In this document: positions 9,887 to 24,978 of the stretch, one piece after another
Layout: every line of letters starts with the position of its first letter
Position numbering within the stretch: position 1 is the stretch's first letter
Assembly: GCA_024644435.1 (NCBI GenBank)
Contig: JAHEKZ010000001.1
Coordinates: 1,703 to 65,702 of the forward strand
DNA from: Actinomycetes bacterium
GTDB taxonomy: Bacteria > Actinomycetota > Actinomycetes > JAHEKZ01
Length of the DNA stretch: 64,000 nucleotides
Direction: 5' to 3'
Position numbers and translations under genes: made by a program
Notes under the pieces: generated by a model
Told to the model about the DNA's origin: nothing
The model's database searches: none
The model's input: the letters and a program-made list of their open reading frames with translations, nothing else

Positions 9887-9973
9887 GTCCGAGTGGCGGA
9901 ATTTGGTAGACGCGCTAGCTTGAGGTGCTAGTGCCCGAAAGGGCTTGGGGGTTCAAGTCCCCCCTCGGACACC
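9887..9973 (+). tRNA. tRNA-Leu (anticodon GAG), type II tRNA with a long variable arm
   Basis: GTCCGAGTGGCGGAATTTGGTAGACGCGCTAGCTTGAGGTGCTAG…GGGGTTCAAGTCCCCCCTCGGACACC aligns by eye with canonical bacterial tRNA-Leu. The anticodon loop is TTGAGGT and the acceptor stem is GTCCGAG/CTCGGAC. Confidence 0.85.
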
Positions 9974-10125
9974 GCAGTAAGTCTCCCGATCGGTGTGTCG
10001 CCGTGCTGCGGTGCAGAACCCACGCAGATCTGCGCATCCCGTCATCCAGATGGCCGATCTTCCCCCCTGAAATGCCTGAACCGCTCCGATCACCGGACAA
10101 GCGCTGCGAAGATGGTGCGCTGTTG

Positions 10126-11328
10126 ATGCGACAAGGGGGCGGCGTGGCGGTGCGATGGGCTCTGGTGGTCGTGGTGGCCCTGTCGACGGCAGGCAGCTCA
10201 CTGGTCGCCGGCGTCGCGTCTGCCGAGGTCCCACCGGATGCGGTCTCGGGCTACCTCTACCGAGACATCGACAACGACGGTGTGCGCGACGTGGACGAGC
10301 CTCCCGTGCCCGACGTCGTCATCCGCTCCGGCCGAAAGTCAACAATCACCGATGCCTTCGGCTACTACGAGTTCACCGGACTCACGAACCAGGTGAACCT
10401 TCGCGTCGACACGGGGTGGTTCCGGAGTCAGTGCACGTCCTCCTACTCCGGGCCGTCATCTGGGGCCAAGCACACCGACGCCTGTCCCGACCCAGGCGTG
10501 GGCGCCGGGATCGATCAGGACTTCCGTGTCGTCAACCAGCTCATTACGGCCACAGCTGCACCCGGGACCGAGGCTTCCCTCGGGTTGACGCCGGACTGGG
10601 TGGGCGATGGCTATGACGGCTTCAGCACAGACCCCAGCGCAGCCGTCTCCATCGACGCCGCACTGCGTCTCTCCCCCGGGTACCGCATGCCGGGCGCGGC
10701 CACGGACTGCCAGCGCTTTGTCTGCCGCCCCGGTGAGACTCAGTGGGTACTCGTCCAGTGGCTCAATCAGGGCACCGAGCCGCTGCAGGGAATGCGGGCC
10801 GTCGTCCGTGCACCGGCCGGCTCCTCGATCACCCAAGTCGCACCGTACTACGGCCACGACAAGGCATCAGGGCAGACAGTGACCGGGTTTCGGGTCAAGG
10901 ACGCCAAGTCGGGCACCAAACTCACCAAAGGGTCAAACGGCTGGCTGTCGACGTCATCCAAACGCATCCGGATCACGCTCAAGGGCTCGGTACCCGCCGG
11001 CAGCGAATACCTCACCGCAGTGGCTTTCCTCATCGACAGCGATGCGACCTTCTCAGACGGCAACGGGGATGGGCTTCCTGACTGCTCAGCGGAGACTGGC
11101 GGTGCCTATCCCGATCAGACCTGCCTCCTCGCAACCGACTCTGGTCCTGGTTCCTACGTCGCCTACGGCGCCATCGTCCGGATCAAGAATGCAGTCGACG
11201 CCGACGCCACGACCTGCCCCAAGATCCCGCGCGCATGCCCGGTGAAAGGAGTGCACGACAAGACCAAACCCGGTGACTCCAACGACTCCGGCGCATGGAA
11301 GGTCGACTCGCTCTACCCCCCCGCATAG
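10126..11328 (+). CDS. Secreted Cys-rich protein with an N-terminal SdrD B-like / Cna-B-like domain
   Basis: Signal peptide (VRWALVVVVALSTAGSSLVAGVASAEV), then YLYRDIDNDGVRDVDEPPVPDVVIRSGRKSTITDAFGYYEFTGL, then about 280 aa with eight or more cysteines. The start was trimmed from 9925, which overlaps the tRNA, to the ATG at 10126. Confidence 0.55.
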   Translation: MRQGGGVAVRWALVVVVALSTAGSSLVAGVASAEVPPDAVSGYLYRDIDNDGVRDVDEPPVPDVVIRSGRKSTITDAFGYYEFTGLTNQVNLRVDTGWFRSQCTSSYSGPSSGAKHTDACPDPGVGAGIDQDFRVVNQLITATAAPGTEASLGLTPDWVGDGYDGFSTDPSAAVSIDAALRLSPGYRMPGAATDCQRFVCRPGETQWVLVQWLNQGTEPLQGMRAVVRAPAGSSITQVAPYYGHDKASGQTVTGFRVKDAKSGTKLTKGSNGWLSTSSKRIRITLKGSVPAGSEYLTAVAFLIDSDATFSDGNGDGLPDCSAETGGAYPDQTCLLATDSGPGSYVAYGAIVRIKNAVDADATTCPKIPRACPVKGVHDKTKPGDSNDSGAWKVDSLYPPA

Positions 11329-12448: not shown

Positions 12449-13078
12449 TCAGTGGCGAAGGTCCTGGCGCGGCTCGAGCGCGGCGGCCAGCAGGAACCGG
12501 ACGGCGTCGTCAACGGTCTGCTCACTGGCATCCTTGGTGTACACCATGTGCCAGCTCAGCGTCTCGAGCACGGCGGGGACGAAAGCCACCGCGCTCTCGG
12601 AGACCTCACCGCTGGCCACTCCTTGCCGCAGGATCAGACCGATCGCCGCGTTCCAGCGCTTCACAGCGGCCCTGGCCTCGACGAGCCGTTCACTCCGCAC
12701 GACCTGCTCGGTCACACACCGTAGATCGAACGGCATCGTTCGATACCACTCGAGGTCCCAAGCGACGTAGCCGGCGAACCTGTCGACCGCTGAGCCGGAC
12801 GTGGCCGCCGCCGTCTCAGCATGATGGGCCGGGACATCCATGTCGTAGACGGCAAGCTCGGCGAGCATCGAGCTCTTGCTGGGGAAGTGCTTGAACAGAG
12901 ACGGCTGCTGGATCCCCACCCGCTCTGCGATCTGCCGGGTCGTTGCCCCGCGAAACCCATGCGTGGCAAAGAGCCGGGATGCCTCGAGCAGGATCTTGTC
13001 TCGAGTGGCCCAACGCCGTCGAGGAGTCGCACGAAGGGTCAGGATGTGCTGCTCGGCACCCTCTGCGACGTCACTCAC
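12449..13078 (-). CDS. TetR/AcrR family transcriptional regulator
   Basis: N-terminal HTH (ILLEASRLFATHGFRGATTRQIAERVGIQQPSLFKHF). Confidence 0.85.
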   Translation of the reverse strand: MSDVAEGAEQHILTLRATPRRRWATRDKILLEASRLFATHGFRGATTRQIAERVGIQQPSLFKHFPSKSSMLAELAVYDMDVPAHHAETAAATSGSAVDRFAGYVAWDLEWYRTMPFDLRCVTEQVVRSERLVEARAAVKRWNAAIGLILRQGVASGEVSESAVAFVPAVLETLSWHMVYTKDASEQTVDDAVRFLLAAALEPRQDLRH

Positions 13079-13170: not shown

Positions 13171-14043
13171 ATGCCAGTGCACACAGCCTCCGGGCACCCG
13201 GAGTTCATTCTCACGCTCTCGTGCGAGGACCGACCAGGGGTCGTCTACGCCGTGTCCAGCTTCCTGGTGCAGCACCATTGCACGATCATTTCCAGCCAAC
13301 AGTACGGCGACCAGGAGACCGGCCGGTTCTTCATGAGAGTACGGTTCGCCTGCTTCGACGGGGACGAGCTGGTATCGCTGCAGCAAGACTTCGCCCGCAT
13401 CTCGACGTCGTTCGACATGTCGTTCGTTCTGCGCGGTGCACAGGAACGCCAGCGGGTGCTCCTGATGGTCTCCAGGTTCGGTCACTGCCTGAACGACCTG
13501 CTCTTCCGCCACCGGATCGGGGCACTACCGATCGACGTTGTCGGTGTGGTGTCCAACCACCGCGACTATGAGGACCTCGTCGAGGACAACAACATCCCCT
13601 TCCACCACATCCCGGTGACGTCGGAGACAAAGACGACCGCCGAACAGCAGCTCCTGACCATCGTGGAGGAGCAGAAGGTCGACCTCGTGGTGCTGGCGCG
13701 TTACATGCAGGTGCTCTCCGAGGACCTCTGCCGGTCCCTCGAGGGCCGTGCAATCAACATCCACCATTCATTCCTGCCGAGCTTCAAAGGAGGCAAGCCC
13801 TACCACCAGGCCCACGAACGTGGGGTCAAGCTGATCGGGGCAACTGCTCACTACGTCACCACGGACCTGGACGAAGGGCCGATCATTGAGCAAGAGGTCG
13901 CCCGCGTCGACCACAGTCTCTCAGCGGACAAGCTTGTCGCCGCTGGCCGCGATGTGGAGTGCCAAGCCCTCGCACGTGCCGTGCTGTGGCACGCCGAGAG
14001 CCGCATCCTCCTGAACGGACACCGGACGGTCGTGTTTCGCTGA
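13171..14043 (+). CDS. purU: Formyltetrahydrofolate deformylase
   Basis: N-terminal ACT domain (FILTLSCEDRPGVVYAVSSFLVQHHCTI) plus a formyltransferase domain (HHSFLPSFKGGKPYHQAHERGVKLIGATAHYVT). The start was trimmed to the ATG at 13171. Confidence 0.9.
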   Translation: MPVHTASGHPEFILTLSCEDRPGVVYAVSSFLVQHHCTIISSQQYGDQETGRFFMRVRFACFDGDELVSLQQDFARISTSFDMSFVLRGAQERQRVLLMVSRFGHCLNDLLFRHRIGALPIDVVGVVSNHRDYEDLVEDNNIPFHHIPVTSETKTTAEQQLLTIVEEQKVDLVVLARYMQVLSEDLCRSLEGRAINIHHSFLPSFKGGKPYHQAHERGVKLIGATAHYVTTDLDEGPIIEQEVARVDHSLSADKLVAAGRDVECQALARAVLWHAESRILLNGHRTVVFR

Positions 14044-14114
14044 TCCAGCGGTCCCTTCCCCTCCGCTCCTCCTGCACGTGTCGGGCCGGTCGCCTAGGGT
14101 CGAGGTGATCATGG

Positions 14115-14126: not shown

Positions 14127-14148
14127 GCGGTCGACGGACGGAGGACGC

Positions 14149-15810
14149 ATGCTCCCCCACCTGACGTGGGTGATCGGTGACCAGACACCGACCGACCACA
14201 TCGTGGTCGAAGGCACCTCGAGGGCACTCTCCGAGGCGGGCTGGCTGGTCGCTGCACACAGCGACGATGGCCCTCGCGGCTCGGCGCTGCTGATCTGGAC
14301 CCGAACCTCGCTCGACGACGAGGCGCGCAGAGCCGTCGCCGAGGCCCGCTCCCATGGCTCACCAATCTTCTTGCTCGGCCCCAGCATCACGGCCGACATC
14401 CCGGAGCTGCGTGAGGCGTCTGGTGTATCCCCCGAGACCTGGGCTCCGTCTCATCTGGCTCGACTGCGGCCGCACGGATCTCAGGTATGGCAAGAGCGCG
14501 TGGCCCCCTCGGGCGGTGCCACCGAGATCCAGACGCCCGTGCTCGCCACCGACAAGGTGCGCGAGTCGGTCGAGATCCGGCTGACGGCACATCTGGGCCT
14601 GACCCCCCACCCCGTGCTCACCTGGAATCCCGAAACCCTTGTCGGTGTCTACTCGGTCATTCCTGACGCGGACGCACCAGAGGAGATCGTGGCCAGCGCC
14701 CGCGTCCTGCACCTCGCGCTCCGTGACGTGCTCTCGATCGACCCTCCTCACGCTGAACCTTTGGTCGTCGGGCTCCTCGGCTTTGGGGCCATCGGGGCCG
14801 AGCACGCCCGCGCGGCCGACGCGCTGCCCGGCCTGCGGCTCGGGATGGTGTGCGATCGGTCCGACGATCGACTCAGCGCGGCACGTGCCCACTTTCCGGG
14901 AGTCACGACCACGACCAGTCCTGAGCGCCTCCTCTCCGACGGCGAGGTCGACGTCGTGGTGGTCTCGACGCCTCCCGACTCGCACGCGGCCTGGGCAGAA
15001 CGTGTCATGAATGCGGGCAAGCACGTGATCGTGGAAAAACCCTTCGCGCTGACGATCGACGAGTCCGATCAGGTTCTGGCAACTGCGCACGCCACCGGGC
15101 GCCGAGCTGTCGTCTACCAGAACAGGCGCTTCGACCCCGACTTCCTCACCATCAGCAAGCTCCTCGACCGGGGATCTCTGGGCGAGGTCTTTCACCTCGA
15201 GGCCTTCATCGGTGGGTACGGCCACCCCTGCAACTACTGGCACTCCGACGAGGCGGTGTCGGGCGGCGCGCTCTACGACTGGGGGTCGCACCTGATCGAC
15301 CAGATCCTCAGCCTGCACCCCGGCCCCATCCACCACGTCACCTGCATCGAGCACAAGCGCAAGTGGCACGACGTCACCAATGCTGACCACACGAGCATGT
15401 CGCTGCGCTTCCGTGACGGCAGTGAAGCCGTCTTCGTGCACTCAGATCTTGCAGCTGCACTCAAACCTCGGTGGTACCTGCTCGGCACCGAGGGGGCTGT
15501 CACCAGCACATGGCGCCATGAGGCCGTGATCGCGCGCAACGCCATCGGAACCCTCGATGAGGACGTGCTGGCAGTCACCGACTCCCCTCCCGAGCTGACC
15601 CTCGTCGACCCGCTCGGTTCGCAGACCGTTCTCAGCCAGGTGAACGCCGAGCCGCACGCCTTCCACCGGCAGTTCGTCGACGACGTACGGTACGCCTGGC
15701 CCATGACGGTCACCGCAGAGCAGTCGCGCCGGGTCGTCGCCGTGATGGAGGCGGCCCGCGCCTCGGCACGCGCCGGGGGCACCCCCGTTCCCGTCAACGG
15801 CGACGCGTGA
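14149..15810 (+). CDS. Gfo/Idh/MocA-family NAD(P)-dependent oxidoreductase with an about 190-aa N-terminal extra domain (possibly ThuA/GATase1-like)
   Basis: C-terminal Rossmann motif GLLGFGAIGAEHA…EKPFALT is Gfo/Idh/MocA-like. The N-terminal segment (ALLIWTRTSLDDEARRAVAEARSHGSPIFLLGP…PVLTWNPE) resembles the ThuA-type GATase1-like fold; this is low-confidence inference. Confidence 0.75.
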   Translation: MLPHLTWVIGDQTPTDHIVVEGTSRALSEAGWLVAAHSDDGPRGSALLIWTRTSLDDEARRAVAEARSHGSPIFLLGPSITADIPELREASGVSPETWAPSHLARLRPHGSQVWQERVAPSGGATEIQTPVLATDKVRESVEIRLTAHLGLTPHPVLTWNPETLVGVYSVIPDADAPEEIVASARVLHLALRDVLSIDPPHAEPLVVGLLGFGAIGAEHARAADALPGLRLGMVCDRSDDRLSAARAHFPGVTTTTSPERLLSDGEVDVVVVSTPPDSHAAWAERVMNAGKHVIVEKPFALTIDESDQVLATAHATGRRAVVYQNRRFDPDFLTISKLLDRGSLGEVFHLEAFIGGYGHPCNYWHSDEAVSGGALYDWGSHLIDQILSLHPGPIHHVTCIEHKRKWHDVTNADHTSMSLRFRDGSEAVFVHSDLAAALKPRWYLLGTEGAVTSTWRHEAVIARNAIGTLDEDVLAVTDSPPELTLVDPLGSQTVLSQVNAEPHAFHRQFVDDVRYAWPMTVTAEQSRRVVAVMEAARASARAGGTPVPVNGDA

Positions 15811-16787
15811 CCGGTCTCGCCACAGACGTTGTCCGCTGGGGCTTCCTCGGGGCGGGCTTCGTGGCCGCTCAGGCTCTGGCGCCGGCAGTCCATGCCAGCC
15901 CCCATGCCCGACTGCACTCCGTCGCAGCACGTGACGAAGGGCGGGCTGCCGCCCTCGAACCCTCCGGTCGCGTCACGACCCGTTATGAAGACGTTCTTGA
16001 CGACGACGACGTGGACGCCGTGTACATCTCGCTCACCAACGAGGTACACCTGCCGTGGATTCTGGCCGCGCTGGATCGCGGCAAGCACGTCCTGTGCGAA
16101 AAGCCGATCACACTCACGGCCGGCGAGTGCCGCACGGCTTTCGCCGCAGCCCGAACGGCCGACCGACTACTAGTCGAGGCTGCCTGGACGCAGTGGCATC
16201 CCAGAACCCGACGGCTCGGCACCTTGGTGAGGCGAGGCGACCTCGGGACCGTGCGATCCATCACCGCCGCCTTCACCTTCGACGGAGTCCCCGACACGAA
16301 CTTCCGGCTCGACCCGGCACGGGGCGGTGGTGCACTGCTTGACGTGGGGCCGTATCTGCTCAGACCGGTGGCCAACTGGGTCGGGGACGAGTGGCGGCTG
16401 GAGGCGGTCGAGCGTGAAACAAGTCAGCGTGGCGTCGACCTCCGGACCCGAGCAACCCTGTCGACCGCGGCCGGGGCCCGGGCGCAGGTTGTCGGCTCAT
16501 TCCTGGACCCGGAGCACCAGGTGCTCCGGGTCGACGGCGAGGCCGCGTCTGCCGAGTGCGGCCCGCCGGCGTTCACCAGCTGGCACAAGCTGGCCACCGT
16601 CGACGTGTCTGACGGCGTGCGCACCTGGTCCGAGACCTTCCCCAGCTGCGACGCCTACGAGCTGATGGTGAGCTCGGTGTCACGGCGGATCAACGGCGAC
16701 GACCAGGCGTTCGTGATCTCTGAGGACGAGTCGCTGGCGTGCATGAGGCTGATCGACCTGATCCGCGAGCCGCAGGGCCGGTCGTGA
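15807..16787 (+). CDS. Gfo/Idh/MocA-family oxidoreductase
   Basis: WGFLGAGFVAAQALAP…VLCEKP. The GTG start overlaps the upstream stop (GTGA). Confidence 0.8.
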   Translation: MTGLATDVVRWGFLGAGFVAAQALAPAVHASPHARLHSVAARDEGRAAALEPSGRVTTRYEDVLDDDDVDAVYISLTNEVHLPWILAALDRGKHVLCEKPITLTAGECRTAFAAARTADRLLVEAAWTQWHPRTRRLGTLVRRGDLGTVRSITAAFTFDGVPDTNFRLDPARGGGALLDVGPYLLRPVANWVGDEWRLEAVERETSQRGVDLRTRATLSTAAGARAQVVGSFLDPEHQVLRVDGEAASAECGPPAFTSWHKLATVDVSDGVRTWSETFPSCDAYELMVSSVSRRINGDDQAFVISEDESLACMRLIDLIREPQGRS

Positions 16788-17650
16788 CATCACTCGACTG
16801 GCCGCTCGACACCTGGGTCGACCCACGGCCCGTTCCCGTCGCCGATGGGACGCAACTCGCTGTGCGAGTCCTCGACGGTGAGGCCCGCCCCTTCGTCTTG
16901 GCGCACGGTCTGGCGTCCAACGCCCTGCTCTGGCGCAACGTTGCCCAGACGCTCAACGCCCACGGCCACGCAGTCGCCGTGGCCGACCTGCGAGGTCATG
17001 GCCGCTCAGAGCGACCGGATGTGGGCCACAGCACGGCTCAGGCAGCGGATGACCTCAACGCTGTCTCGGCGGCGTTGGGGTGGCAGGGGCGGCGACCTGT
17101 CGTGGTCGGACAGTCGTGGGGCGGCAATGTGGTGCTCCGTGCAGCGCGTGACCAGGCGGTGTGGGGTGGGGTGGCCGCGGTCGACGGCGGATGGATTCAC
17201 CTCGGCAACCGATTCCCCTCGTTCGAGGCGTGTTGGACGCAGCTCGCGCCGCCAGACCTGAGCGACCGGCCACCCGCTGAGGTGCTGGCCTGGATCTCGT
17301 CGATGGTGTCCGACTGGCCCGACGGTGCCGCAGCAGCCATCGCCGGCAACCTGGAGCTCCGGGCGGGCTCGGTCCGCAACCGGCTCGACCGTGCGCATCA
17401 CCGCTCAATCCTGCACTCTCTGTGGGCCGACGACCCGACCGACATGTACGCCGACATCGCGGTACCCACCCACCTGATGGTCGCGGGCACGTCGACCTCA
17501 ACCGATGTCGACCGCGCCCAGTCGGCGATTCCCGACGCCACGGTCACCTGGTACCCCGACGCCCACCACGACCTCCATCTCCAACATCCGCAGACAGTCT
17601 CTGATCAGCTGCTAGAGCTGGTTCAGCGCGTGAAAGGATCGACAGCGTGA
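16784..17650 (+). CDS. Alpha/beta-fold hydrolase
   Basis: HG…LW oxyanion region (VLAHGLASNALLW) and GQSWGG nucleophile elbow. The start is either the GTG at 16784 (GTGA overlap with the upstream stop) or the ATG at 16739. Confidence 0.75.
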   Translation: MTSLDWPLDTWVDPRPVPVADGTQLAVRVLDGEARPFVLAHGLASNALLWRNVAQTLNAHGHAVAVADLRGHGRSERPDVGHSTAQAADDLNAVSAALGWQGRRPVVVGQSWGGNVVLRAARDQAVWGGVAAVDGGWIHLGNRFPSFEACWTQLAPPDLSDRPPAEVLAWISSMVSDWPDGAAAAIAGNLELRAGSVRNRLDRAHHRSILHSLWADDPTDMYADIAVPTHLMVAGTSTSTDVDRAQSAIPDATVTWYPDAHHDLHLQHPQTVSDQLLELVQRVKGSTA

Positions 17651-18921
17651 GCCGTATCGTGCTGATGGGGTCGGGAGAGACTGCGCCTGCCATGGTCAAG
17701 ACGCACCGCGCGGTCATCGCGGCGGCCGGTGATGGGCCGTGCGTCATGCTCGACACCCCGTACGGATTTCAGGTCAACGCCGACGACCTGACCAGACGCA
17801 CGCTCCGGTACTTCGACGAGTCCGTCGGCCAGCGAGTCGTCCCCGCCCAGTGGCGTCATCGTGACGCGCCGTCTGCTGATCGCGAGCGGGTTCTGGCCCA
17901 GCTCAGCCAGGCATCGTGGCTGTTCGCCGGTCCGGGCAGTCCCACCTATGCACTAGACCAGTGGCGTGACACGGCTCTGCACGGCGCCATAGGCGACGTG
18001 GTCGCTCGAGGGGGCACCGTCGTCCTCGGCAGCGCGGCGGCCGTCACGGCGGGTCGGTGGGCCCTGCCCGTGTACGAGATCTACAAGGTCGGCGTCGCTC
18101 CGTACTGGGCCGACGGTCTCGACCTGCTCAGTCGCTTCCTCGACCTCGAGGTCGCCGTTGTCCCCCACTTCGACAACGCCGAGGGCGGAACGTACGACAC
18201 CCGCTTCTGCTACCTCGGTGAAGGGCGTCTCGACTACCTCGAGCGCCAGCTACCCGACAAGGCCGCAGTCCTCGGCGTTGACGAGCACACCGCGCTGGTC
18301 ATCGACGTGGCCAGCGGCACTGTCGAGGTCTCGGGGGCCGGTCATGTGACGGTCCGGCGGCACGGCGCAGCGGAGCAGATCCCCGCGGGGAGCCTTCTCA
18401 CCGTCACTGAGCTACGCGGGATCGCGACCGGCGTCGCCCATGTTCCGCCGTCCAGCACGTCGGCCACAGTCGACACAGAAGCGGCGATGGGTGGTGAAAC
18501 ACCGTCCCTCGACCGCGAGGTGCAGACGTTACGAGCCGACTTCGACGAGGCCATGTCCGCCGGCGAGGTCGATACCGCGGTCGCCGTCGTCCTGGCGCTC
18601 GACGACTCGATCGCCGCCTGGTCGGCCGACACCCTTCAAAGCGACGCGCTCGATCAGGCGCGCCGCGAGCTGCGTGCCATGGTCGTCCGCCTCGGAGAGC
18701 TGGCCAAGGTGGGCACCGCCGACCCTGCGGTCACCGTGGGGCCCCTGGTCGAGGCCGTCCTGGCAGCTCGTCGCCAGGCCAGGGTCGAGAAGGACTTCGC
18801 GCTCAGCGATCGTCTGCGGGACGTGCTGCTCGGCGGTGGCGTCACGGTGCAGGACACCCCCGAGGGAGCGCAATGGTCGTTCAACCTCCCGAACGACGAA
18901 GGACCCGGCTTCTCACCGTGA
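17647..18921 (+). CDS. Fusion protein: peptidase-S51/cyanophycinase-like (GATase1-like) N-domain plus a cysteinyl-tRNA synthetase C-terminal-like domain
   Basis: N-terminus has IVLMGSGE…WLFAGPGSPTYAL (S51-like). The C-terminus (VEAVLAARRQARVEKDFALSDRLRDVLLGGGVTVQDTPEGAQWSF) closely resembles the extreme C-terminal helix-hairpin of bacterial CysRS. The GTG start overlaps the upstream stop. Confidence 0.5.
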   Translation: MSRIVLMGSGETAPAMVKTHRAVIAAAGDGPCVMLDTPYGFQVNADDLTRRTLRYFDESVGQRVVPAQWRHRDAPSADRERVLAQLSQASWLFAGPGSPTYALDQWRDTALHGAIGDVVARGGTVVLGSAAAVTAGRWALPVYEIYKVGVAPYWADGLDLLSRFLDLEVAVVPHFDNAEGGTYDTRFCYLGEGRLDYLERQLPDKAAVLGVDEHTALVIDVASGTVEVSGAGHVTVRRHGAAEQIPAGSLLTVTELRGIATGVAHVPPSSTSATVDTEAAMGGETPSLDREVQTLRADFDEAMSAGEVDTAVAVVLALDDSIAAWSADTLQSDALDQARRELRAMVVRLGELAKVGTADPAVTVGPLVEAVLAARRQARVEKDFALSDRLRDVLLGGGVTVQDTPEGAQWSFNLPNDEGPGFSP

Positions 18922-18966
18922 GGTGAGGGCCGGGCCCTTCGCGAAGCCTGTTATCAGGCCCCGAGA

Positions 18967-19170
18967 TCAGGCAAGACGGACGTTCTCCGCCTGCGGACCC
19001 TTCGGGCCCTGCGTGATTTCGAACTCGACGCGCTGGTTCTCTTCAAGGGTGCGGTACCCGTCCATCGTGATGGCCGAGAAGTGAACAAAGACGTCGGCGC
19101 CGCCGCCGTCTTGCTCGATGAAACCGTAACCCTTTTCAGCGTTGAACCACTTAACGCTGCCTACTGCCAT
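18967..19170 (-). CDS. cspA: Cold-shock protein (CspA family)
   Basis: [18 protein letters not shown]…VFVHFSAI (RNP1/RNP2 motifs). Trimmed to 67 aa. Confidence 0.9.
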
Positions 19171-19341
19171 GGAACTCTCCAACTCTTGATGCTGCCGCTC
19201 CCGCAGGTTGCGGGTTCGGGGTTGCGGCACTCAGAGTGCCCGCGAGCCTTTCCGCGAGCGTTTCGGAGAAACGAGACGACGGAAAACTTCAACAACCAGG
19301 AGTGACGTTACCACGGGCAGGTCGCGCGGCCACGGTGCCGC

Positions 19342-20850
19342 TCAGGTGAGGTCGGTCGCCAATGGCGGGGACACGCCGGCCGAGTCGATCGTCTTGAGCT
19401 CCAGCGACTGCAGCAACCGGGGGTCGTGCGGGGCGACCATCACCGTGACTTTCAGCCGTTTGGAGCCCCGCTCCCCCTGCATCAGCCAGGTCATCGACCC
19501 AGGCGATGGGCGAGTCGGGGGGTCGTCGGTCGACGCCAAGGTGCCATGGTCCCGCCGGAGCTGGCCCCAGACGGCCACCCGCTCCGCCCAGGGAACATCC
19601 CTCTCGACGTTGTCGGCACACATCTGTCGCAGCAGGCGAGCTGCCGGCCCGTCCGGGTCGTCGAGGGACAGCCAGTCGGTGACTGTCACCCGAGCAGCAT
19701 CGAGCGCCGGAAAAGGCAGCGGTGGCGCGTGCCGGTCTGCCCCGAGCTGGACCACGAGGTCGCCCAGCGCCCCAGTCGCCACCGTCGACATCGGGGCGTA
19801 GGTCCCGTTGGCGAGCGCGACCACCCCCAGGCCCGATGCCGGGTGCCAGCGCATGTGCGACCCGAAGCCTGGATAGCCACCGGAGTGGTGAACCGAACGC
19901 CCCCAGTCCCGGAAGTCCTCGAAGAGCCCAAACCCGTACCCGGTGAGCTCCGGTGCCGCCCCCCCACCTCGGCCGGCCGTGGCGGCGACCAGCCGCTGCG
20001 TGACCTGCATCTCGCGCACCGAGGACTGTCGCAGATGCGGCAACGAGATGTCGGACCACTGCTCGTCGTCATCGGCAGCCTGGAAGAGCCCCACCCACCG
20101 CGCAAGGTCGCGGATGCTGCTCAACACACCACCCATCGGCGAGAACGCGCCAGAGCCAGCGATGGGTTCTTCGGCCCACCCCGTGGTTCGCCTGACGTAC
20201 CCGGCGGCCCGGTTCGCCGGCAGGTCATCGAGCTGGTAGCCCGAGGACGCCAGGCCGAGCGGAAGAAGCAACCGTTCGGCGACCACCTGCGAGTAGGGCT
20301 GCCCGGTGGCGGACTCCACGACCAGGCCGAGAATCGCGTAGCCGAGATTGGAGTACTCGAACCGCTTGCCCGGGGCCAACGACGGCCTCACGCCTGAGCC
20401 GAGCAGCTGACGGAAGGCGGGGATCGCCAGATCCTGCTGACGATCACCCCATGGGTCGTCGGTCAGGAACCCCCCACCCATGGTGAGCAGATGGCGGATC
20501 GTGAGAGCGGAAGCACCGGCTCCCGATGTGAGCTCCGGGACGAACTCGACCACCGGTGCGTCGAGGGCGAACGCCCCCTCGTCGCGCAGGCTCAGGACTG
20601 TGGCGGCGGTGAAGCTCTTGGTCATCGACGCGATGCGGAAGATGGTGTCCGCGTCCGGGGCAGATCCGGCTCCCGGTCCTTCCGCTGATAGGTCCCGATC
20701 GCCAAGGCCCCTGCAGTGGACAACCTGGCCGTCCATGACGACCGCGTAGACCAGCCCGGGGGCGCGCCCGGCCTCCATCGCCGCATCGAAGTGGGGGTCG
20801 ACCACCGCCGCGATCGACGCGGCATCGGAGCTGGTCAGGGGTGTGGACAC
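19342..20850 (-). CDS. Serine hydrolase, beta-lactamase/DD-peptidase (class C-like) family, with an about 150-aa C-terminal extension
   Basis: SxxK motif (ASMTKSF) and YSN motif (FEYSNLGY). Trimmed to the GTG at 20848-20850. The longer ORF would overlap the divergent NlpC/P60 gene. Confidence 0.75.
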   Translation of the reverse strand: MSTPLTSSDAASIAAVVDPHFDAAMEAGRAPGLVYAVVMDGQVVHCRGLGDRDLSAEGPGAGSAPDADTIFRIASMTKSFTAATVLSLRDEGAFALDAPVVEFVPELTSGAGASALTIRHLLTMGGGFLTDDPWGDRQQDLAIPAFRQLLGSGVRPSLAPGKRFEYSNLGYAILGLVVESATGQPYSQVVAERLLLPLGLASSGYQLDDLPANRAAGYVRRTTGWAEEPIAGSGAFSPMGGVLSSIRDLARWVGLFQAADDDEQWSDISLPHLRQSSVREMQVTQRLVAATAGRGGGAAPELTGYGFGLFEDFRDWGRSVHHSGGYPGFGSHMRWHPASGLGVVALANGTYAPMSTVATGALGDLVVQLGADRHAPPLPFPALDAARVTVTDWLSLDDPDGPAARLLRQMCADNVERDVPWAERVAVWGQLRRDHGTLASTDDPPTRPSPGSMTWLMQGERGSKRLKVTVMVAPHDPRLLQSLELKTIDSAGVSPPLATDLT

Positions 20851-20923
20851 GGACCAAGGGTGCCACGTGTGACGATGCCCCGTCGGTCGACTCGGGAGGT
20901 CGCGGCTCCACCTCGCGGCGTCA

Positions 20924-21772
20924 ATGACCGATGATGCTCCTATGAGCAGAGTTCCGTGGCCGGTGTTCGCCGCCAGGCTAGCGCCACCCGCGCGGGCGGC
21001 CTTGGTGATGGCCCTGGCCCTGCTTCTGACACTGCCGTTCGCTCTGGTCGTCCCCCAGCCAGTGCACGCCGGCAGCAGCGACCCATACCTCTCCGACGAC
21101 GTCCCCAGGGCCCGCGGATGCATCGTGCTCGGACGCGCCTGGGCAGGTGTGAAGGTATCGCTGGTCCAGCAGCGACTGGGAACGACCCACGAGCTCGAGC
21201 GGTATGGATCGGACACCCAGCGGGCCGTATCGGCGTTTCAAGCACGCCGTGCCCTCCGGGTGACTGGCAAGGTCAATCGGCCGACCTGGAAGGCCCTGGG
21301 CTTCACCCGTTCCTTCTGCATGGACCGCTTCACCGTTCAACCAGCAGTGTCTGCACCGGTGTCGGCCAACGAGCGGATCGAGGCGATGGTCAGCTGGGCC
21401 CGTGAGCAGGTGGGCCGCCGCTACATCTGGGGGGGAGCCGGACCTGTGGGTTACGACTGCTCCGGACTCGCGCTCCAGGCCATGTACGCCGGTGGGCGGG
21501 TTCTGCCGACAGTCACGACCTACCAGCACCAGCGTCGTGACTTTGGCACGGCATCGGCCATATTCGACTCCGGGATGCGACGTGTACCGCTCGACCAACG
21601 ACGGCGTGGCGACCTCATCTTCTACGGCCCGACCGGGTCCATCACCCACATGGCGATCTACCTCGGGCACGGGCGCGTACTGGAGGCGGTCCGACCCCAG
21701 GTACGTCGCTCATCGATGTGGGGCCACGGCGTTCCGGTCAAACCCCGCGTGGTCCGTCCGTTCGGGCGCTAG
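20924..21772 (+). CDS. Secreted NlpC/P60 (C40) peptidoglycan endopeptidase with a peptidoglycan-binding domain
   Basis: Signal peptide, then a PG_binding_1-like repeat (SDTQRAVSAFQARRALRVTGKVNRPTWKALGF), then catalytic Cys (RYIWGGAGPVGYDCSGL) and His (ITHMAIYLG). Confidence 0.85.
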   Translation: MTDDAPMSRVPWPVFAARLAPPARAALVMALALLLTLPFALVVPQPVHAGSSDPYLSDDVPRARGCIVLGRAWAGVKVSLVQQRLGTTHELERYGSDTQRAVSAFQARRALRVTGKVNRPTWKALGFTRSFCMDRFTVQPAVSAPVSANERIEAMVSWAREQVGRRYIWGGAGPVGYDCSGLALQAMYAGGRVLPTVTTYQHQRRDFGTASAIFDSGMRRVPLDQRRRGDLIFYGPTGSITHMAIYLGHGRVLEAVRPQVRRSSMWGHGVPVKPRVVRPFGR

Positions 21773-22168: not shown

Positions 22169-22999
22169 TCACTTCGCGTCGTCTTCCCGCCGCGGCACGT
22201 CACCGATGGCGTAGCAGGCAATGGCTACGGCAGCCGCCACATTAAGCGAGTCGACGCCGGCCGACATGGGAATCCGTACCTGCCGTTCGACCTGCTGCAG
22301 GGCGGCGTCAGTCAGCCCGGGGCCTTCGCTGCCCAGCAGAAGTGCGACCCGCTCCTCCGAGTCGAAGGACACGTCCGGAAGAGCGACGGCGTCCGCACGC
22401 GGCGTCAATGCCACCAGCTCCCAACCCTCTCGGACCAGGTCGGACAGGCCTTGCGGCCACGGCGCCACCCGCGTCCAGGGGAGAGCGAACACCGCCCCCA
22501 TCGACACCCGCACGGATCGTCGGTAGAGCGGATCGGCGCAGGTCGGGTCGACCAGGACGGCGTCGAAGCCGAGCCCCGCCGCTGATCGGAAGACCGCCCC
22601 CACGTTGGTGTGGTCGACCACCCCTTCGAGCACCAGAATCCGGCGAGCCGCTCTCGTCACGGATTCGACCGATGGCAGCGGCAGCCTGGTCATGGCGGCC
22701 AGCGCACCTCGATGCACGCGGTACCCGGTGATCTGGTGAACGACGTCTTCGGCAGCGACGAACACGTCGGTGTTCGGCGGGATCGGAAGATCTTCGACTG
22801 CCGAGAGCCACCGCGGCGTGGTGAGGACAGATCGCACCGGATAGCCGGCCTCCAGCGCACGCCCGATCACCGGATGGCTCTCCGCCATGAACAGGCCCTC
22901 GGCTGGCTCCTTGCGCCGGCGGAGCCCGGTGTCGGTGAGGTTGCGGTAGTCGTCCACCCGCGGGTCACCGGCGTCATCTATGCGGATCGTCTGGGTCAT
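22169..22999 (-). CDS. TrmH/SpoU-family RNA 2'-O-methyltransferase
   Basis: SPOUT motifs (LVLEGVVDHTNVGAVFRSAAGLGFD…LLLGSEGPGLT…IPMSAGVDSLNVAAAVAI). Trimmed from 630 aa to 276 aa at the ATG 22997-22999, which overlaps the upstream stop as ATGA. Confidence 0.8.
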   Translation of the reverse strand: MTQTIRIDDAGDPRVDDYRNLTDTGLRRRKEPAEGLFMAESHPVIGRALEAGYPVRSVLTTPRWLSAVEDLPIPPNTDVFVAAEDVVHQITGYRVHRGALAAMTRLPLPSVESVTRAARRILVLEGVVDHTNVGAVFRSAAGLGFDAVLVDPTCADPLYRRSVRVSMGAVFALPWTRVAPWPQGLSDLVREGWELVALTPRADAVALPDVSFDSEERVALLLGSEGPGLTDAALQQVERQVRIPMSAGVDSLNVAAAVAIACYAIGDVPRREDDAK

Positions 23000-23745
23000 C
23001 GGAGCAGCACCACGAGCGCAATCAGCCCCACGACGACGATGAACCCGCGGAGGACCGTGTCGGGCAACCGGCGACCGTAGTGCGCACCCAGGTACCCACC
23101 CACCGTCGAGCCGGCAATCAGCACCACCGCGATCCCCCAGTCCACGGGGGCGAGCAGGATGAAGACGACGGCTGCGATGGCGTTCACCACGGCGGCGAGG
23201 ACGTTCTTCAGTGCGTTCACCCGCTGGAGATGAGCGTCGACCAGCGCCCCGAGGATCGCGATCAGCAGGACGCCCTGGGCCGCCCCGAAGTAGCCCCCGT
23301 AGATGCCGACGAGGTACACGGCGATCCACGCGACCGGACCGCCGAGGGCGTGGGTGTCGTGCGGCACGGCAAGCCGCCTGGCGATCATGGGTTGGAGGGC
23401 GACGAGCACGACTCCCAGACCGACCAGGACGGGAACGATCGTGTCGAAGGCCGACTCCGGGAGGACGAGCAGCAGAGCCGCACCCGTCAGGCCACCTAAG
23501 ATCGACGCCGGAACGAACCGGCGCATGCGTGGCCGCTGAGTCGAGAGCTCGCGCCGGTACCCGACGCTGCTGGCCACCGAACCCGAGACAAGTCCCACCG
23601 TGTTGGTCACGTTCGCGGTGAACGGTGACACGCCCAACGCCACCAAGGTCGAGAACGTGACGAGAGTGCCGGAGCCGACCAAGGCATTGATTCCACCGGC
23701 TGCGACTCCAGCCATCAAGATCGCCAGCCACTCCCACCAGACCAT
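22996..23745 (-). CDS. Sulfite exporter TauE/SafE family membrane protein
   Basis: Duplicated 4-TM halves, each with a GxGGG motif (AAGGINALVGSGT…, GYFGAAQGVL). Confidence 0.8.
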   Translation of the reverse strand: MVWWEWLAILMAGVAAGGINALVGSGTLVTFSTLVALGVSPFTANVTNTVGLVSGSVASSVGYRRELSTQRPRMRRFVPASILGGLTGAALLLVLPESAFDTIVPVLVGLGVVLVALQPMIARRLAVPHDTHALGGPVAWIAVYLVGIYGGYFGAAQGVLLIAILGALVDAHLQRVNALKNVLAAVVNAIAAVVFILLAPVDWGIAVVLIAGSTVGGYLGAHYGRRLPDTVLRGFIVVVGLIALVVLLR

Positions 23746-23841
23746 GGGGGCACATGCTAGGCCGCGCCCTGACGGGGGCCTCGGTCAGTCGTGGTTCGGG
23801 GCCATCGTCAAGGCGCCGCGGCGCGCTGCCGATGGTCAACC

Positions 23842-24978
23842 ATGAGCCCGACGCGCCCGATGCGCCACCGGGCGGCTGATGCTGCCTGGTCGAGTGTTGC
23901 CGTGCTCTTGTGCGCCTCGACCATCGCCATGGTCGGCCTCGCGGGCTCAGCGCGCGCGGACAGCGCCGATGAGGCGAGGGCACGGGCAGCGGCAGCCGCT
24001 GAGCGGGTCGATGCCCTGCAGGAACGAGTGCTTGAGGCCAGGACCGAGTACCGACAGGCACTGCGGGGCTTGGCCGGAGCCGTCAACCAGGAGGTAGCCG
24101 CCGATGCAGCAGCCGACGCCGCAGAGCGCGCTGCCTTGCTGGCGGAGCAGGACCGGGTCGCTGCCATCCGAGCGCTGGAGCAGTCCGGAGGTTCCCTGGC
24201 CATGGTGGAAGGCCTGCTGGAGTCGGGCAGCCCCAGCGCGCTCGCTGCGCGACTGAAGACCTCAACCGAGGTACTCGACCTCCTCGCCTCCGGCTCGGAG
24301 TTCACCTCAGACACCGCCCAACAGAGTGCCCAGTTCGCCCAGCAGCAAGAGCGTGGCACGCGTATGACCATGGTGACGGTTGCAGACGTCGAAGGCGCCT
24401 ATGCGCGACTCGATGCGGTACTCACCGAACAGGAAGAGGTCCTGGCCACCCTGGACAGTGAGGCCCAGCAGCTCGCCCGCGCCGAGCGAGTCCAGGCCAG
24501 GATCGATGCGCAGCGAGCAGCGGCTGCTGCCGCGGCGTCCAACGCCTCGAGCGAGGCGACGGCCGGGGGCATCCCGAAGTCCTACCTGGGCCTGTACCGA
24601 GGCGCGGCAGCGACGTGTCCGGGCCTTCCGTGGCCCGTTCTGGCTGCGATCGGCCAGGTGGAGAGTGGGCACGGCACGAACACCGGCCCCTCATCGTCCG
24701 GTGCCATGGGTCCGATGCAGTTCCTGCCCAGCACCTTCGCGGCCTACGCCGTCGACGGGGACGGGGACGGGGTACGAGACATCTGGAACCCCTCCGACGC
24801 CATCTTCAGCGCGGCCAACTACCTGTGCGCCAACGGCGCGGGTGGTGGGCCTCGAGCCCTCTACGCCGCGATCTTCCGCTACAACCACGCCGACTGGTAC
24901 GTCCTCATGGTGATGCGGGTTGCCGCGCAGCTGGCCAGCCGCTTCGGCGAGCCCATCCCGGTGGCCGAGGCACCCTGA
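23842..24978 (+). CDS. Secreted lytic transglycosylase (SLT-domain) protein with an N-terminal coiled-coil region
   Basis: Signal peptide, an Ala/Glu/Gln-rich coiled coil, and a C-terminal SLT catalytic region (AIGQVESGHGTN…MGPMQFLPSTF…AANYL). Confidence 0.75.
   Translation: MSPTRPMRHRAADAAWSSVAVLLCASTIAMVGLAGSARADSADEARARAAAAAERVDALQERVLEARTEYRQALRGLAGAVNQEVAADAAADAAERAALLAEQDRVAAIRALEQSGGSLAMVEGLLESGSPSALAARLKTSTEVLDLLASGSEFTSDTAQQSAQFAQQQERGTRMTMVTVADVEGAYARLDAVLTEQEEVLATLDSEAQQLARAERVQARIDAQRAAAAAAASNASSEATAGGIPKSYLGLYRGAAATCPGLPWPVLAAIGQVESGHGTNTGPSSSGAMGPMQFLPSTFAAYAVDGDGDGVRDIWNPSDAIFSAANYLCANGAGGGPRALYAAIFRYNHADWYVLMVMRVAAQLASRFGEPIPVAEAP

Follow-up and report, generated by a model that had tools for sequence, protein, structure and literature searches.

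A four-gene unit in an actinobacterial genome

The stretch of DNA analysed here, 64 000 nt from contig JAHEKZ010000001.1 of an Actinomycetes bacterium and referred to below as the window, carries four genes that follow one another on the forward strand between positions 14149 and 18921. We call them g1 to g4. The unit centres on g4, in which a hydrolase domain of the peptidase S51 fold is joined to a module derived from cysteinyl-tRNA synthetase (CysRS). The open reading frames (ORFs) are g1 at 14149-15810 (553 aa), g2 at 15807-16787 (326 aa), g3 at 16784-17650 (288 aa; translation could also start at an in-frame GTG further upstream, at 16739) and g4 at 17647-18921 (424 aa). The GC content by codon position is of the coding type throughout (GC1 ~0.72, GC2 ~0.50 and GC3 ~0.80), and this pattern extends into the first 200 codons of g1 (GC3 0.80).

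Each downstream start codon overlaps the preceding stop codon within a GTGA sequence, at 15807, 16784 and 17647, just as a first-pass annotation made from the sequence had reported. That annotation took the tight coupling as its argument for a single functional unit. The overlaps are real, but four-nucleotide overlaps are common in the window, numbering about 13 by a crude count, so that three in succession are suggestive and not by themselves decisive. Conservation carries more weight, and it is on this that the case for a single unit mainly rests. All three overlaps are also found in the loci L081 and L086, and the neighbourhood is conserved: the four-gene set recurs in Acidimicrobiia, in a metagenome-assembled genome (MAG) of the Micrococcales and in a MAG labelled Mycobacterium sp. 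We are therefore confident that the four genes form a real, conserved operon, as had been proposed.

The S51-fold hydrolase domain of g4

The structural model of g4 (predicted local distance difference test score, pLDDT, of 80) has three parts: an alpha/beta domain (aa 1-262), a disordered linker (aa 268-284), and a C-terminal region in which a small beta-hairpin domain comes after four long helices. The gene had been described as a fusion of an S51-like domain with the C-terminal region of CysRS. Both hidden Markov model (HMM) and fold searches bear this out, although the Pfam Peptidase_S51 model itself (PF03575) scores 16.4 bits, below its gathering cut-off of 23.9.

The N-terminal domain (17647..18432, + strand) has the fold of a peptidase-S51 serine hydrolase. 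Its best match in Foldseek is 6nqc from an acI actinobacterium (E 7e-14, TM score 0.81); pseudo-CphB, PepE and cyanophycinase are also found, with E values running overall from 7e-14 to 1e-9. The similarity to 6nqc is also detectable at the sequence level with a profile of the g4 family (E 4.6e-6). In this alignment the GSAAA, PHxDN and DEHTA motifs of g4 fall on CSAGA, PHFN and IDEVTA of 6nqc, placing Ser129 (18031-18033), His174 (18166-18168) and Glu213 (18283-18285) at the positions of the S51 nucleophile, histidine and glutamate. We take these three to be the catalytic triad. Their conservation was assessed in 66 species-level representatives of g4, drawn from Actinomycetes, Acidimicrobiia, Chloroflexota and a Dormibacteraeota MAG. 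All 66 have Ser129 and His174, and 64 have Glu213.

Just past the catalytic histidine, residues 178-192 (18178-18222) form a near-invariant stretch, AEGGxxDTRFCYLGE, around a loop of low pLDDT. Its Cys188 is present in 65 of the 66 representatives. The stretch may be a substrate-binding lid.

A CysRS-type module tethered by a flexible linker

The two domains of g4 are connected by a low-confidence linker (aa 263-286, 18433..18504, + strand) that varies in both length and sequence. The pLDDT is below 50 at residues 268-284, and in alignment A1 the segment contains insertions and deletions and no conservation. It leads into the C-terminal domain (aa 287-413, 18505..18885, + strand), comprising a CysRS-type helical bundle and an alpha/beta anticodon-binding domain. 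The Pfam model CysS_C (PF23493) matches g4 at 25.6-28 bits, passing the cut-off of 23. Positions 336-464 of the cysteine--tRNA ligase model TIGR00435 align with residues 285-411, at 33.6 bits for a cut-off of 340 that the protein does not reach; no part of g4 corresponds to an aminoacylation domain. The g4 family profile matches CysRS chains with E values of 4e-8 to 2e-7, laying residues 298-413 on residues 339-459 of E. coli CysRS, and hhalign gives 94% for residues 416-459 of the E. coli enzyme. With the tail of g4, Foldseek retrieves chain B of 1u0b, the complex of CysRS with tRNA-Cys.

In that complex G34 is hydrogen bonded by R427 and D436 of E. coli CysRS, stacked upon by W432 and contacted through water by R423, while R439 belongs to the anticodon-interaction site (PMC12684709, PMC13449415). 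Pairwise alignment takes R423, R427, W432, D436 and R439 to R375, R379, F384, D388 and R391 of g4 (18769-18819, + strand). The three arginines and the aspartate, R375, R379, R391 and D388, are invariant in 66 out of 66 species representatives, and position 384 is always F, Y or W. The part of g4 that derives from CysRS thus keeps the residues that contact the anticodon, and therefore points to tRNA-Cys and not to a purely catabolic role in the breakdown of sugars or cyclitols. That the domain does bind tRNA-Cys we regard as an even call.

Within the helical bundle a WSADTLQ sequence (aa 325-331, 18619-18639) surrounds a low-confidence loop between two helices. W325 and D328 are found in all 66 representatives, and the motif has no counterpart in the aligned segment of E. 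coli CysRS. Some homologues of g4 carry the NCBI label 'CysS/YqeB C-terminal domain-containing protein'. E. coli YqeB (L089:7615-9240) has no CysS_C Pfam match and no profile similarity to g4, and is thus uninformative as a control for the domain outside tRNA binding.

The alpha/beta hydrolase g3

The Pfam matches of g3 are to Abhydrolase_1/6 and Hydrolase_4, with PF12697 at 68.7 bits and PF00561 at 64.2 bits, above the gathering scores in accordance with the first assignment of the gene. The protein has the features expected of an alpha/beta hydrolase, a G-x-S-x-G nucleophile elbow (GQSWG, containing Ser111) and a C-terminal histidine (His262), together with an HG pair at residues 41-42. All 16 orthologues compared have H41, G42, S111 and H262. 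In a profile search the best full-length match in the PDB is the small-molecule amidase 3kxp (6e-24); arylesterases, perhydrolases and a gamma-lactamase come next.

The oxidoreductase pair g1 and g2

Both g1 and g2 are Gfo/Idh/MocA oxidoreductases, again as first assigned, and both pass the gathering cut-off of PF01408 (24 bits). In g1 the NAD(P)-dependent oxidoreductase occupies the C-terminal part of the protein, g1C (aa 203-553, 14755..15810, + strand), with GFGAIG at residue 211 and EKP at residue 296; residues 203-550 match PF01408 at 84.5 bits, PF22725 at 75.4 and PF02894 at 65.9. The solved chains nearest to g1C are oxidoreductases that are themselves uncharacterised (3e18, 3kux, 3e82 and YvaA), and there are weak matches to models of inositol, levoglucosan and glycoside 3-dehydrogenases. 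The second oxidoreductase, g2, has GAGFVA at residue 15, EKP at residue 98 and a D-x-x-x-Y sequence in place of D-x-x-x-H. It matches PF01408 at 75.8 bits and PF22725 at 56.6 bits. Among solved chains it comes closest to the sugar 3-ketoreductase 3rbv (E 6e-32), with the dihydrodiol dehydrogenase/anhydrofructose-reductase group and aldose-aldose oxidoreductase ranking behind.

The first reading had found no obvious housekeeping identity for any of the genes, and this holds. All four proteins fall far below every NCBIfam equivalog cut-off, and neither g1 nor g2 reaches the equivalogs for inositol 2-dehydrogenase, levoglucosan, glycoside 3- or xylose dehydrogenase. The best equivalog score is 109 bits with TIGR04380, for a cut-off of 355, while the top-scoring subfamily model, NF008607, gives 143.5 bits for a cut-off of 330.

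The N-terminal domain of g1 (aa 1-200, 14149..14748, + strand) had been proposed to be ThuA-like. The fold supports this: fold searches identify a ThuA-type class I glutamine-amidotransferase-like architecture. The proposal fails at the level of sequence families, residues 1-204 having no Pfam match at E<=10, PF06283 for ThuA included. No catalytic motif was recognised in the domain. Although g4 also has an amidotransferase-like N-terminal domain, no homology between the two is detectable (hhalign 3%).

The domain is rare. A word-indexed search with residues 1-200 returned nothing, and this proved to be a failure of sensitivity; an exhaustive search of 1.84 billion proteins found eight representative clusters, in each of which the domain lies N-terminal to the same oxidoreductase. 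Locus L081 encodes a g1 orthologue of 553 aa. The idea that the domain is confined to L001-L004 was rejected, since its profile matches the orthologue in the Micrococcales MAG (L065, E 2e-37) and matches, profile to profile, the N-terminal extensions of ~200 residues carried by the Acidimicrobiia orthologues (95%, E 2.6e-8). This recurrence indicates that the fusion is old and fast-evolving and is no local novelty. Loci with the order g4-g1-g2 (L007 and L017) lack the domain.

In rhizobia and Agrobacterium, ThuA and the Gfo/Idh/MocA protein ThuB together make up a dehydrogenase that forms 3-keto-disaccharides (PMC8121099). By analogy g1 looks like a fused ThuA-ThuB pair, and oxidation of a sugar or cyclitol is a predicted function that serves as a lead for g1 and g2 only.

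Distribution and gene neighbourhood

The g4 family is large, with more than 7600 homologues in the protein collection, nearly all of them full length at 405-465 aa. It occurs across the Actinomycetota and in some Chloroflexota. In public databases its members go by the JGI name 'cyanophycinase-like exopeptidase' and, at NCBI, by 'hypothetical protein' or the CysS/YqeB domain label. When one genome per species was scanned with a pattern, at least 568 confirmed g4 loci emerged, the best 80 of which were kept for analysis of their surroundings.

The partnership of g3 with g4 is the most persistent feature. Among the 73 loci whose flanking sequence suffices, 54 have g3 as the immediate upstream neighbour of g4 in the same orientation. 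The two genes overlap at 41 of 56 species-level junctions (4 nt at 29 of them, 1 nt at 10), and their junction, which in the window is the GTGA at 17647..17650 (+ strand) shared by the stop of g3 and the start of g4, is the best conserved in the unit. The oxidoreductases are found less often: of the 53 loci whose flanks are long enough on either side, 13, about a quarter, carry both g1C and g2. These are the four closest relatives, several Acidimicrobiia (among them the complete genome of Salinilacustrithrix flava), the Micrococcales MAG and the MAG labelled Mycobacterium sp. Two gene orders occur, g1-g2-g3-g4 and, in two loci, g4-g1C-g2 without g3. Thus g3 and g4 form the conserved core, with g4 as the hub and g1-g2 as an accessory pair.

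The association can also be approached from the other side. Of the eight g1-like representatives found independently of g4, three were looked up, and all three are in a g1-g2 context. In L086 g3 and a truncated gene at the position of g4 lie downstream of g1-g2; in L087 g2 is followed by an unannotated cut gene; and in L088 there is a CysS_C fragment downstream of g1-g2. The remaining surroundings of g4 are housekeeping genes that depend on the lineage, including icd, mdh, ctaA/ctaB, clpS-DUF2017, an ABC1 kinase, galT/galK and the gene for mannose-6-phosphate isomerase.

Several arrangements may be recorded in their own right. In two Acidimicrobiia (L015:1664-9251 and L016) ctaB, on the minus strand, and ctaA precede a cluster in the order clpS-DUF2017-g1-g2-g3-g4, and the genes downstream (an integrase and glycosyltransferases) are unrelated. 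ClpS is an N-end-rule adaptor, linked in proteobacteria to an aminoacyl-tRNA-protein transferase. A connection to the mec-cysO-cysM cysteine pathway, brought to mind by clpS and DUF2017, was dropped in view of the unrelated downstream genes. In a different actinobacterial lineage (L084:2302-10568 and L088:1-13260) the g3-g4 pair lies between a block of DeoR, galT, galK and alpha/beta-hydrolase genes and a gene for a mannose-6-phosphate-isomerase-like cupin; in L088 g1-g2 are inserted between the galT-galK block and g3-g4. A role in anti-phage defence was rejected, as none of the four proteins matches a PADLOC model.

Signals and flanking genes

Ahead of g1 a Shine-Dalgarno sequence GGAGGA (14140..14145, + strand) stands 4 nt before the ATG at 14149 and is kept in L001 and L002. 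The spacer between g1 and the upstream gene purU (about 13192-14043) contains a TAGGGT hexamer (14095..14100, + strand) of the actinobacterial TANNNT type, resembling a -10 element and lying ~49 nt upstream of the g1 start. When the purU-g1 spacers of four related genomes (the window, L001, L002 and L086) are aligned, the block TAGGGTCG is invariant. The sequence suggests that TAGGGT is a candidate promoter for the operon, separate from that of purU. A scan for sigma-70 consensus promoters found none, the inside of the unit included. Neither terminator-like hairpins nor Rfam families were detected inside the unit, and a search for a riboswitch, leader or terminator inside or ahead of it was negative. 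A weak inverted repeat spans the g4 stop codon (18900..18938, + strand), with 10-nt arms that are 90% complementary and 19 nt apart; it lies between g4 and the convergent cspA (18967-19230, - strand) and is not a canonical terminator.

A TetR gene (12449-13078, - strand) also lies on the upstream side, and genes of the beta-lactamase and NlpC/P60 families follow cspA. A tRNA-Leu (GAG) at 9887-9973 overlaps the start of the ORF listed at 9925-11328, whose true start is probably further downstream. The ORFs listed at 19342-21216 and 22169-24061 (both - strand) far exceed the gene calls of the closest relative, L081, where the counterparts are a 503-aa protein of the beta-lactamase family and a 275-aa SpoU methylase. 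One of the 5' extensions overlaps the NlpC/P60 gene on the opposite strand, and both extensions are probably untranslated.

A possible function on tRNA-Cys

What might such an operon do? The best explanation for finding a catalytic triad, a flexible tether and a CysRS module with base-specific contacts together in g4 is that the enzyme docks on tRNA-Cys and acts on a group attached there. In this model g4 would be a cytoplasmic Ser-His-Glu hydrolase of the S51 fold, tethered by a flexible linker of ~25 residues to a module that reads the anticodon stem-loop, and it would dock on tRNA-Cys via the GCA anticodon. Once docked, the enzyme would use Ser129 to attack an acyl ester, most likely an aminoacyl ester, carried on the 3' end of the tRNA. 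As exopeptidases, the S51 enzymes bind a residue whose alpha-amino group is free and cut the bond following it; the ester of an aminoacyl-tRNA presents the same geometry. The ester could either be hydrolysed, as in trans-editing or deacylation by a free-standing factor, or give up its acyl group to an acceptor. The neighbouring g3, of small-molecule esterase or amidase type, may act on the same substrate or on the product, possibly in a complex with g4. In those lineages that carry them g1 and g2, as NAD(P)-dependent sugar or polyol oxidoreductases, may make or remove a hydroxylated co-substrate, a link between the two halves of the operon that we infer from gene linkage only. We propose this reading of the operon as a whole tentatively, and deacylase or transferase chemistry in particular seems to us doubtful.

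Several observations weigh against the proposal. The conserved residues of the C-terminal domain could serve folding, or could bind a small molecule containing guanine in place of a tRNA. We know of no S51-fold enzyme that acts on aminoacyl-tRNA. The C-terminal domain is net acidic (about -3 in the anticodon-binding part and -4.5 in the helical part); the matching fragment of E. coli CysRS is likewise slightly acidic. The model of g4 has a predicted template modelling score (pTM) of 0.62, which leaves the relative placement of the domains undefined. Moreover g4 is often found by itself amid unrelated housekeeping genes, and the presence of sugar-type oxidoreductases next to a tRNA-directed enzyme is not accounted for by the model.

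The main alternative, essentially that put forward in the first-pass annotation, is an operon for the catabolism of a small molecule. Here g1 and g2 would oxidise a sugar, glycoside or cyclitol in the manner of a ThuAB-like 3-keto-forming enzyme or a 1-dehydrogenase, g3 and g4 would cleave ester, lactone or amide bonds in it or in a conjugate of it, and the CysRS-like tail would be structural, oligomerising or nucleotide-binding and unconnected with tRNA. The oxidoreductase half fits such a role, given the ThuA-like fold in g1, for which ThuAB provides a documented chemistry (PMC8121099), the relationship of g2 to a sugar 3-ketoreductase, and the weak similarities of g1C to inositol, levoglucosan and glycoside 3-dehydrogenases. 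The resemblance of g3 to esterases, lactamases and amidases is in keeping with it, as is the placement of g3-g4 beside galT, galK and the mannose-6-phosphate isomerase-like gene in L084 and L088. However, about three loci in four have g4 or the g3-g4 pair and lack g1-g2, genes for transporters, sugar kinases or sugar-responsive regulators show no consistent linkage, and the NCBIfam equivalog scores are all far below their cut-offs. Nor does it account for the conservation, in 66 of 66 species, of the helical bundle and the residues that contact G34. We consider this alternative possible, if rather unlikely.

Alternatively, g4 might be a peptidase or amidase that is switched by tRNA-Cys, serving as a sensor of cysteine supply, with an S51 domain that cleaves a small cysteine-containing or storage compound and not the ester of a tRNA. 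This draws upon the same evidence for a tRNA-binding module, and it would fit both with the S51 relatives that are dipeptidases and cyanophycinases and with the frequent position of g4 amid genes of central metabolism. Yet an anticodon-binding domain on its own is blind to charging, so that the 3' end of the tRNA would still have to reach the catalytic domain. The scheme is less economical, we know of no precedent for a peptidase or amidase switched by tRNA-Cys, and we judge it improbable.

It is very improbable that g4 is simply an orthologue of cyanophycinase or of the aspartyl dipeptidase PepE, acting on beta-Asp-Arg or Asp-X dipeptides. The S51 fold, the triad and the name 'cyanophycinase-like exopeptidase' would suggest as much, but an identification as cyanophycinase was rejected at 17.7 bits with TIGR02069 (cut-off 126.6), the Pfam S51 score is below gathering, the identity to 6nqc, pseudo-CphB, PepE and cyanophycinase is just 14-22%, no cyanophycin synthetase lies in the neighbourhood, and the CysRS module would be left over. 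Finally, that the four genes share no function and are neighbours only through compact packing is suggested by how common four-nucleotide overlaps are in the window, and is made most unlikely by the adjacency of g3 and g4 across classes and phyla and by the linkage of g1-g2 to g4 in two different gene orders.

How far might the tRNA-Cys model extend? In its boldest form g4 would found a new class, an S51-fold enzyme that reads the anticodon of tRNA-Cys and moves a cysteinyl or mis-acylated group to water or to a hydroxylated acceptor. The matching esterase would be g3, while g1 and g2 would ready a sugar or cyclitol as the acceptor, or regenerate it. The operon would then be a tRNA-dependent route to a cysteinyl conjugate, or the means of its quality control. 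We offer this as a long shot.

Significance of the unit

The g4 family, for all its size, is named only by a domain label, as hypothetical protein or as cyanophycinase-like exopeptidase. Should it prove to act on tRNA-Cys, the enzymes working on charged tRNAs would gain a new catalytic fold, and a new step would come to light in the handling of cysteine or tRNA-Cys in a phylum that includes major pathogens and producers of antibiotics. Even if the assignment to tRNA is wrong, the g3-g4 pair and the recurrent ThuA/ThuB-like oxidoreductases constitute a conserved pathway that is worth assigning.

Comparison with known systems

In our search of the literature we found no work on the g4 family, its S51/CysRS architecture or the operon. 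Each of the parts nevertheless comes from a known superfamily, and the predicted logic has architectural precedent. The catalytic domain of g4 resembles the S51 enzymes PepE, CphB and 6nqc in its fold, with a TM score of up to 0.81, and in having the serine of the nucleophile elbow, the histidine and the glutamate. It departs from them in failing the Pfam S51 and cyanophycinase equivalog cut-offs, in its low sequence identity to the solved structures, in conserved motifs of its own (GSGETAP, LDTPFGFQ and DTRFCYLGE) and in the additional C-terminal module. That module is homologous to the C-terminus of CysRS in sequence and fold over residues ~339-459 of the E. coli enzyme, with the G34 contacts kept. 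In contrast to CysRS, g4 lacks the Rossmann catalytic domain and so cannot aminoacylate. CysRS is not known to have an editing domain of its own.

The oxidoreductase half of the operon compares with ThuA and ThuB of Sinorhizobium and Agrobacterium, in that g1 unites a ThuA-like fold with a ThuB-type Gfo/Idh/MocA oxidoreductase. There, however, the two are separate proteins, whereas g1 is one fused polypeptide; g1 has no ThuA Pfam match, the ThuA-like domain is missing from g1 in the g4-g1-g2 orders, and the operon has no transporter of the thuEFGK type.

For the pairing of g4 with g3 there is a possible analogy in the aminoacyl-phosphatidylglycerol synthases accompanied by an adjacent alpha/beta-hydrolase that removes the aminoacyl ester, for example PA0920/PA0919 of Pseudomonas. 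In both cases an enzyme that uses aminoacyl-tRNA, as predicted for g4, would be coupled with a neighbouring esterase. The folds are unrelated, the Pseudomonas transferase being of the GNAT type, and that system is membrane-bound with lipid substrates; we claim no homology.

ThrRS-ED of archaea consists of an editing domain that is fused to an anticodon-binding domain and exists as a free-standing protein (PMC8762117). In its catalytic fold g4 differs, an S51 Ser-His-Glu hydrolase being no known editing fold; its binding module comes from CysRS, a class I synthetase, and its activity is a prediction. The two nonetheless share the same plan, in which a hydrolytic domain is combined with an anticodon-binding domain derived from a synthetase and the aminoacylation domain is absent. 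Of the known systems, it is ThrRS-ED that provides the closest analogue for the way in which g4 may work.

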